The notes beneath the pieces are model-generated. The model was not told the origin of the DNA. It did not search any database and worked only from the letters and a program-made list of their open reading frames with translations. From the UHGV virus genome UHGV-0192751: a stretch of DNA of 12,489 nucleotides; one strand, written 5' to 3'. Shown here piece by piece: positions 11,972-12,489 of the stretch. Both the position numbers and the translations under genes were made by a program. How positions within the stretch are numbered: position 1 is the first letter of the stretch; the number at the start of each line of letters is the position of its first letter. This DNA is from a virus.

Positions 11972-12489
11972 ATACTTATTGGCTACGTGAGAGTGTCAAC
12001 AAATGATCAGAACACTGCACTCCAGCGAAACGCGCTCGAGAGTGCAGGATGTGAGCTGATTTTCAAAGACAAGATCAGCGGTAAGGTGTCCGACAGACCG
12101 AGATTAAAAAAGGTGCTCCGGACGCTATCTGAAGGCGATACGTTGGTGGCGTGGAAATTGGATCGGCTTGGTCGCAGCATGCGACATCTTTTTGTGTTAG
12201 TGGAGGAACTGCGGGAGAAGGGGGTTAACTTTCGGAGCCTGACGGATAGCATCGATACGAGTACGCCTATGGGGCGGTTCTTCTTTCATGTCATGGGGGC
12301 TATGGCAGAAATGGAAAGGGAACTGATTGTCGAATGTACCCGGGCAGGATTGGCGGTTGCGCGCAGAAGGGCGGATCGGCGGCCGCAGGCCAAAGTTAAC
12401 GGATGAGCAGTGGCGGGAAATGGGGGAGCGGATGGCAACCGGTGAATCACGACAAAGCGTATCAAAAACGTATGGAGTAGGGCTCTCAA
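11972..12489 (+). pseudogene. Invertase locus interpreted as a pseudogene (start codon lost, internal frameshift); 3' end beyond the window
   Basis: In-frame ATA at 11972-11974 where ATG is expected. Frame change at the GCGCGC tract 12359-12364: the 0 frame stops at 12404-12406 while the +1 frame continues with recognisable family sequence to the window end. Confidence 0.5.
11987..12406 (+). CDS. Site-specific DNA invertase, serine recombinase (Hin/Gin/Cin/Pin family), catalytic domain; apparently disrupted
   Basis: RVSTNDQNTALQRNAL...WKLDRLGRS...SLTDSIDTSTPMGRFFFHVMGAMAEMERELIV is the family catalytic domain with the Ser in VSTNDQ. The only canonical start is GTG 11987; the position where homologs begin MLIGY reads ATA CTT ATT GGC TAC (11972-11986). 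The C-terminal helix-turn-helix domain is encoded in the +1 frame after about 12363 (EGRIGGRRPKLTDEQW...). Confidence 0.7.
   Translation: MRVSTNDQNTALQRNALESAGCELIFKDKISGKVSDRPRLKKVLRTLSEGDTLVAWKLDRLGRSMRHLFVLVEELREKGVNFRSLTDSIDTSTPMGRFFFHVMGAMAEMERELIVECTRAGLAVARRRADRRPQAKVNG

Follow-up and report, generated by a model that had tools for sequence, protein, structure and literature searches.

A probable DNA-invertase relic and an apparently dismantled tail-fibre switch in an Escherichia myovirus prophage

The stretch of viral DNA analyzed here (UHGV-0192751, 12,489 nucleotides; hereafter the window) ends in what is very probably the non-functional remnant of a serine DNA-invertase gene of the Pin/Gin type (Din family). 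The pseudogene lies on the plus strand at 11972–12489, where the end of the window truncates it; its +1 frame stops ~29 nt past that point in identical loci. With the same high confidence we place the relic in a SEN34/Omnitron-like myovirus prophage residing beside yciI in Escherichia, whose tail module has the relic at its right end. A pseudogene of this type is ordinary and already annotated, and the invertase finding itself is not new.

The family assignment is straightforward. A Hin/Gin/Cin/Pin-like catalytic domain of the Din family had been recognized in the first-pass annotation, which also proposed an alignment with Gin. In that alignment the spliced translation matches Gin of phage Mu (3UJ3) with E=5e-80 over residues 1–181 at ~78% identity. 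The motif GYVRVST, an instance of the family signature YxRVS with its nucleophilic serine, is present. Three lesions nevertheless separate the relic from the intact genes with which it was compared, namely four E. coli invertase genes (L002, L004, L005 and L006).

The first lesion affects the start codon. At 11972–11974 the window reads ATA, followed by LIGYVRVSTNDQ, where intact homologs have ATG, including all four of the aligned E. coli genes. The same ATA is found in each of the eight loci that carry the module lying upstream of the relic and reach the start codon (L001, L007–L010, L012–L014). Two in-frame stop codons occur just 5′ of the ATA, so the invertase frame cannot begin earlier, and its earliest usable starts are the GTG codons at 11987 and 11993. 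Neither is preceded by an AGGAG-like sequence, just as had been suspected from the letters alone, and the ATA itself has no Shine-Dalgarno sequence ahead of it: the GGA(A)GG of the four intact genes corresponds to CCGCTTCAC in the window. A promoter scan of positions 11300–12100 returned no promoter-like site. Thus, the window lacks the translatable gene with a start codon and a ribosome-binding site that is expected of a Din-family member.

The second lesion is a 2-bp deletion marked by the GCGCGC run at 12359–12364 and revealed by alignment with the intact genes. All four of them have two extra bases at this tract, intact versions of which read GCTGCACGCGC, GCCGCACGCGC, GCTGCGCGAGC or GTAGCCAGGGC, whereas the window has GTTG--CGCGC. 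As a result of the deletion, the helix-turn-helix (HTH) domain is moved to the +1 frame. Frame 0 reads ...ECTRAGLAVARRRADRRPQAKVNG, ends with ...AVARRRADRRPQAKVNG and terminates at a premature TGA (12404–12406; ORF 11987..12406 in the ORF list), while frame +1 reads AEGRIGGRRPKLTDEQWREMGERMATGESRQSVSKTYGVGLS as far as the window end, its continuation being AEGRIGGRRPKLTDEQW...SKTYGVGLS. The frame change at 12359–12366, the frame 0 stop ending at 12406 and the +1 location of the DNA-binding domain had all been noted before, with accurate coordinates. Pfam finds HTH_7 next to the Resolvase domain (PF00239, E=3e-47) only after the two frames are spliced. In other words, the C-terminal HTH is not part of the same polypeptide, which in the Din family totals about 180–195 aa.

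The third lesion is in the ERT motif, which indeed reads ECT: at 12335–12337, TGT (Cys122) replaces an invariant arginine. The codon at this position is CGC or CGT in the four intact genes, and the 120 closest database homologs all keep the arginine. Cys122 corresponds to R122 of Gin and to R125 of the gamma-delta/Tn3 resolvases. Tn3 resolvase still recombines in part when its R125 is changed to Ala or Lys (R125A, R125K), and this residue is not regarded as catalytic (PMC2794168). By analogy, the ECT change is therefore best regarded as a symptom of decay and not as a knock-out by itself.

Further signs of decay come from conserved positions in general. We scored the spliced protein against the same number of homologs (120) at the 118 alignment columns that are at least 95% conserved. 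It deviates at nine of them, and seven of the nine deviations fall in the Pin-like part of the protein: M1I, E32K, G44R (in the DRPGL motif), V60A, V74F, L111M and R122C. None of the seven replacements occurs in any of the homologs, which themselves deviate at these columns with a median of 0 and a mean of 0.83 per protein. The relic retains S9, R7 and the DRLGR motif; the full set of invariant catalytic-domain residues seen in the family is not kept. The test thus points to relaxed constraint and, together with the three lesions, agrees with the initial impression of a decaying invertase. Pairwise dN/dS values against intact alleles (0.05–0.11) show no relaxed selection, being dominated by older divergence, which suggests that the inactivation is recent relative to the divergence between the alleles.

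It might be argued that the true gene is intact, with an ATG and an extra GC at the tract (GCGCGCGC), and that the lesions are sequencing or assembly errors, a caveat raised in the first-pass annotation. Short GC runs can be miscalled, and the window is 100% identical over 7 kb to one metagenome contig (L007), from which it may derive. However, the same ATA, TGT and 2-bp deletion recur in the RefSeq chromosome of E. coli mip270_04 (NZ_CM132654.1, L001) and in at least four Logan assemblies (L008, L010, L013, L014), which come from different runs. These assemblies differ from the window elsewhere: an IS3 element truncates the mip270_04 locus, the fibre gene is shorter in L008 and L010, and L013 and L014 have five SNPs, a different invertase C-terminus and a DinI neighbour. 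Moreover, three separate lesions accompanied by six further unusual replacements do not form an error pattern. We consider an error extremely improbable and have dropped the caveat.

The mip270_04 gene, ACWYAU_RS09265, is 99.9% identical to the window over positions 11800–12489, the one indel in these 690 bp falling outside the gene, and is labeled by PGAP as ‘recombinase family protein, frameshifted’. Unlike in the window, everything left of window position 11546 has been removed by the IS3 element. In this chromosome (L001 11541–12958) the IS3 abuts a truncated copy of the orphan gene described below, and only the orphan-gene fragment and the invertase relic are left between kch and yciI. 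L008 and L010 lack ~242 bp corresponding to window 10076–10317, making the fibre 392 aa compared to 476 aa in the window; this looks like a length polymorphism of the fibre shaft.

Eight contigs were recovered when the product of the orphan gene was looked up by exact protein match, and all of the assemblies found show one orientation only. Among the eight loci that reach the start codon, six have both ECT and the frameshift (L001, L007, L008, L010, L013 and L014). In the remaining two (L009 and L012), ATA is present, but the ERT motif and the reading frame are kept. This nesting implies that the ATA is the older change and that ECT and the frameshift are younger. The ATA form with an intact frame could have been tolerated for some time; alternatively, L009 and L012 are mosaics, the intact part of which may simply have been imported recently.

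These two loci also bear on the idea of residual, very weak expression from the ATA or the downstream GTG, with the frame restored by a +1 ribosomal slip or by reversible slippage at the GC repeat; the product would be an invertase that is down-tuned or phase-variable. Very low levels of an invertase suffice for activity, and rare AGG and AGA codons in tandem can promote +1 shifts. With the 2 bp gone, CGC AGA AGG is read in frame 0, and a +1 slip at AGA-AGG, a tandem of rare Arg codons (12365–12370), would give ...AVAR-EGRIGGRRPKLT...; in addition, L009 and L012 keep an open frame behind the ATA. Yet their tracts are interrupted (GCGCGAGC, GCACGCGCG) and do not represent a longer GC run, while every frameshifted copy has (GC)3, and with three dinucleotide units the run is too short to slip efficiently. 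The gene is losing conserved residues, there is neither a Shine-Dalgarno sequence nor a promoter-like site, and no pair of crossover sites is available for the enzyme to act on. Residual invertase activity of this kind therefore seems very improbable.

We assign a similarly low probability to a new role for a truncated catalytic-domain protein (137–139 aa) devoid of the DNA-binding domain, for example, a dominant-negative damping of other Pin-type invertases in the same cell. In serine recombinases, dimerisation is mediated by the catalytic domain and helix E, and the 139-aa ORF (GTG 11987 to 12406) is still open, spans the whole catalytic domain and is identical in several assemblies. Invertases of cryptic prophages are reported to act in E. 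coli (PMC12529663; bioRxiv 10.1101/2025.03.28.646004). The identity between copies, however, reflects recency and not selection. The GTG lacks both a ribosome-binding site and a promoter, and a protein initiated there would be missing most of strand beta-1. Besides, it is at the invariant positions that replacements pile up. Thus, a non-functional relic remains the preferred reading.

To see what an intact switch looks like, it is useful to consider the closest relatives. The tail module of the window shares 93–96% DNA identity with those of strain LR-33 (L002, at yciI) and strain 44 (L005, at yccA). In these intact relatives the order is Sc (the constant N-terminal part of the fibre), crossover site, Sv (the variable tip), U (the chaperone), U′, Sv′, crossover site and invertase, with U′ and Sv′ on the opposite strand. 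The Sv-U-U′-Sv′ segment thus lies between 26-bp inverted sites, which include TTACCACAAACCTTGGTTTGGGAGAA paired with TTCTCCCAAACCAACCTTTTTTATAA, and the invertase of 182–188 aa has an ATG and a Shine-Dalgarno sequence. The window shares with them the Sc part and the outer half of the left site, and it shares with relatives at the yciI site both the insertion position and the invertase 3′ end from 12411 onward; in place of the invertible segment, it has the orphan-gene module. Similarity at the other end of the window is to different phages: positions 1–278 match, at 93% identity, the endolysin genes of Salmonella phage 118970_sal3 and Escherichia phage SKA5, indicating that the lysis and tail modules of the prophage have different closest relatives.

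The window contains a single Sv-U cassette. The tail fibre gene (9492–10922, plus strand) codes for 476 aa from the ATG at 9492, in agreement with the 476-aa call in L007, while the mechanical ORF begins at 9474. Its Sc part extends to about 9923, homology to the relatives ending at 9925–9931, and the Sv part from 9924 contains a Gp53-like_C domain detected by the domain search. The tail fibre assembly (chaperone) gene that follows (10925–11353, plus strand, 142 aa) is the U-like partner of the fibre tip (Pfam Caudo_TAP, E=1.6e-23; phrog_188, 4e-39). A promoterless Sv′ and U′ on the opposite strand are absent; between the chaperone and the invertase, the opposite strand carries a single gene, a 102-aa orphan with its own Shine-Dalgarno sequence, in which neither Pfam nor PHROG detected fibre or chaperone domains.

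A crossover-site-like sequence, TTCTCACATACC TT GGCTTATCAGAT, is present at 9910–9935 of the plus strand. It is the best match to the Din consensus in the window, with 4 of the 20 specified positions mismatched; its outer half and core are conserved and its inner half is degenerate. In an alignment of this sequence with the left crossover sites of L005 and L002, the similarity is lost right after the core. We searched for a partner by inverted-repeat detection, with the sites of the relatives, with the Din consensus allowing up to three mismatches and with a relaxed Python scan. Neither the repeat search nor the consensus scans found a second, inverted site. A candidate at 11493, inside the orphan gene, has six mismatches and was judged a chance match. 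Accordingly, the two 26-bp inverted crossover sites that flank the segment in a functional switch are not both present. With one half-degenerate site remaining, there is nothing left to invert. The earlier suggestion of a fibre switch ‘locked in one orientation’ does not fit this arrangement: as judged from the sequence, fibre specificity appears to be fixed because the switch has been dismantled.

Variation among intact invertases of this prophage family deserves mention. In E. coli M172-1 (L003 11948–14102), the invertase is intact, the alternative cassette is missing and the inner half of the left site is degenerate, a layout suggesting that in this prophage family an invertase can outlive its substrate. 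The LR-33 invertase is preceded (L002 ~14168–14192) by a 9-bp perfect inverted repeat, TTCTCCTGT-N7-ACAGGAGAA, which overlaps the ribosome-binding site of the yciI-type invertase and may be autoregulatory or structural.

The orphan gene (11449–11757, minus strand) stands where relatives carry U′ and Sv′. It codes for 102 aa from an ATG at 11755–11757, with GGAG at 11764–11767; the mechanical ORF extends to 11802 (117 aa), while the homolog P0121 is also 102 aa long. The protein has no Pfam match at the gathering level and no PHROG, PADLOC or NCBIfam match, the only hit being a sub-threshold one to Pfam YjcQ, and its AF2 model is poor (pLDDT 45.7). A search for homologs among 5.8 billion proteins yielded only three clusters: one from C. 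freundii (93%), a 61% relative encoded beside a myovirus sheath gene and one assembly chimera. P0123 (95 aa, from a Logan contig of 1340 nt) appears to be an invertase::orphan fusion, in which the invertase N-terminus runs into the orphan protein where the two share a word coding for AWK. As it is represented by a single contig, it was dismissed as most likely a k-mer assembly chimera.

The orphan gene is part of a 612–617 bp module (about 11352–11968 of the window) lying to the left of the invertase homology. Close to its left boundary, the left edge of a larger block discussed below reads TTCTCCCAAAGGTTCCT on the minus strand of 11355–11371 and includes the 10-nt inner half-site TTCTCCCAAA of the relatives' sites, the centre being GGTTCC versus CCAAGG. 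All module-carrying loci agree exactly as far as this motif, and divergence sets in directly beyond it. The motif is possibly a vestigial crossover site. Next to it, at 11372–11388, the sequence reads as a perfect hairpin, GCCCGGC-ATG-GCCGGGC, with a 7-bp stem and a 3-nt loop. Situated between the convergent chaperone and orphan genes, the hairpin may be a bidirectional terminator; a terminator scan of 11300–12100 called nothing, this hairpin included.

C. freundii prophages have the same module at 94% identity, adjoining an 83-aa ORF and with no invertase. In these genomes (L015–L020; L015 ~4541–5406), the module ends a different prophage, next to the host cytochrome bc1 genes. The C. freundii copy is homologous to the window up to ~11968 and then runs into the 83-aa ORF. 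In the window, invertase-gene homology begins only at TCAT(G/A)CTT, which puts the module/invertase junction at 11967–11968, 4 nt 5′ of the start codon. The invertase promoter, the Shine-Dalgarno sequence and the right crossover site are all absent at the junction. Hence, the DNA upstream of invertase position −4 is foreign, and the occurrence of the module without an invertase in C. freundii suggests that a rearrangement in the E. coli lineage joined it to an invertase gene. The G-to-A change in the start codon is 6 nt from the junction; it may have arisen in the event that formed the junction or at another time.

A second discontinuity is found within the relic itself. From 12411 on, the window is identical to the intact yciI-site invertases of L002 and L006. 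Upstream of this point, it is ~60% identical to L002 and 88% identical to the Pin-like L004, which resides at another site. In L013 and L014, identity to the window extends up to 12413, beyond which an L004-type C-terminus takes over. The breakpoint at 12411–12413 thus separates a Pin/Gin-like dead allele on the left from a yciI-type C-terminus on the right, and the relic is a recombinant of two invertase lineages. Neither this nor the foreign DNA upstream of position −4 featured in the first-pass annotation.

Taken together, the left edge of the module and the breakpoint delimit a block of 1.06 kb (11355–12413) that consists of the orphan gene and the 5′ 440 bp of the dead invertase. The block is 96–99.5% identical among loci that differ on both sides of it (L009, L012, L013, L014), and the loci sharing it differ in their fibres, chaperones and invertase 3′ ends. 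In the simplest reading, homologous recombination moved the block, dead gene included, between prophages. One could go further and consider the block a portable unit that spreads between unrelated prophages, with the orphan gene as a selected ‘moron’. The contexts would then be the yciI site, the DinI-linked loci and C. freundii (there without the invertase part), and the invertase relic would persist solely because it offers a homology arm for exchanging cassettes. The orphan might be, for example, a superinfection-exclusion or receptor-masking factor that displaced the alternative fibre cassette. We view this extended scenario as unlikely, and in what follows we keep to the simplest reading, movement by homologous recombination.

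On the basis of a handful of loci, we infer the following order of events. A rearrangement would first have joined the orphan module to an invertase gene, removing the right site, the promoter and the Shine-Dalgarno sequence. The change of ATG to ATA would have come next, after which replacements would have drifted in at conserved positions. R122C and the 2-bp deletion would then have arisen in one sub-lineage. Finally, homologous recombination would have carried the 11355–12413 block into different prophages, including that of the window, using the fibre N-terminus or the chaperone end and the conserved invertase coding sequence as homology arms. The phage would thus be left with one fixed fibre tip and would no longer undergo inversion.

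For annotation purposes, the ORF should be labeled as a pseudogene, and the tail-fibre specificity of the prophage should be described as fixed, not switchable. More generally, the locus may serve as a neat illustration of the dismantling of a phage host-range switch and of the way in which homologous recombination can go on moving a dead gene fragment from one prophage to another. As far as invertases are concerned, it raises no new question; the loose thread is the orphan gene that replaces the alternative fibre cassette.

The kin of the relic within the Din family are Gin of Mu (3UJ3, 4M6F), Pin of e14, Cin of P1 and Hin of Salmonella. Like Gin, the relic combines the active-site motif GYVRVST with a GRIGGRRPKLT arm, after which comes the HTH domain. 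The gin, cin and pin genes are located at the distal end of myovirus tail-fibre modules, and the relic, like the invertases of its intact relatives, occupies the same place. Din invertase genes also contain a Fis-dependent recombinational enhancer inside the 5′ coding region. Unlike Gin, Pin, Cin and Hin, the relic has no start codon, ribosome-binding site or promoter, its HTH is out of frame and the arginine of its ERT motif is replaced; it is also left without paired crossover sites and without the Sv′/U′ cassette. A parallel is provided by E. coli K-12, where Pin-type genes are likewise stranded in decaying prophages. Its pinH is a pseudogene, while pinE, pinQ and pinR are functional. Continued activity of some of these genes is reported (PMC12529663; bioRxiv 10.1101/2025.03.28.646004). 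Compared with these cryptic-prophage Pin genes, the relic is surrounded by a tail module that looks intact, the switch alone having been taken apart.
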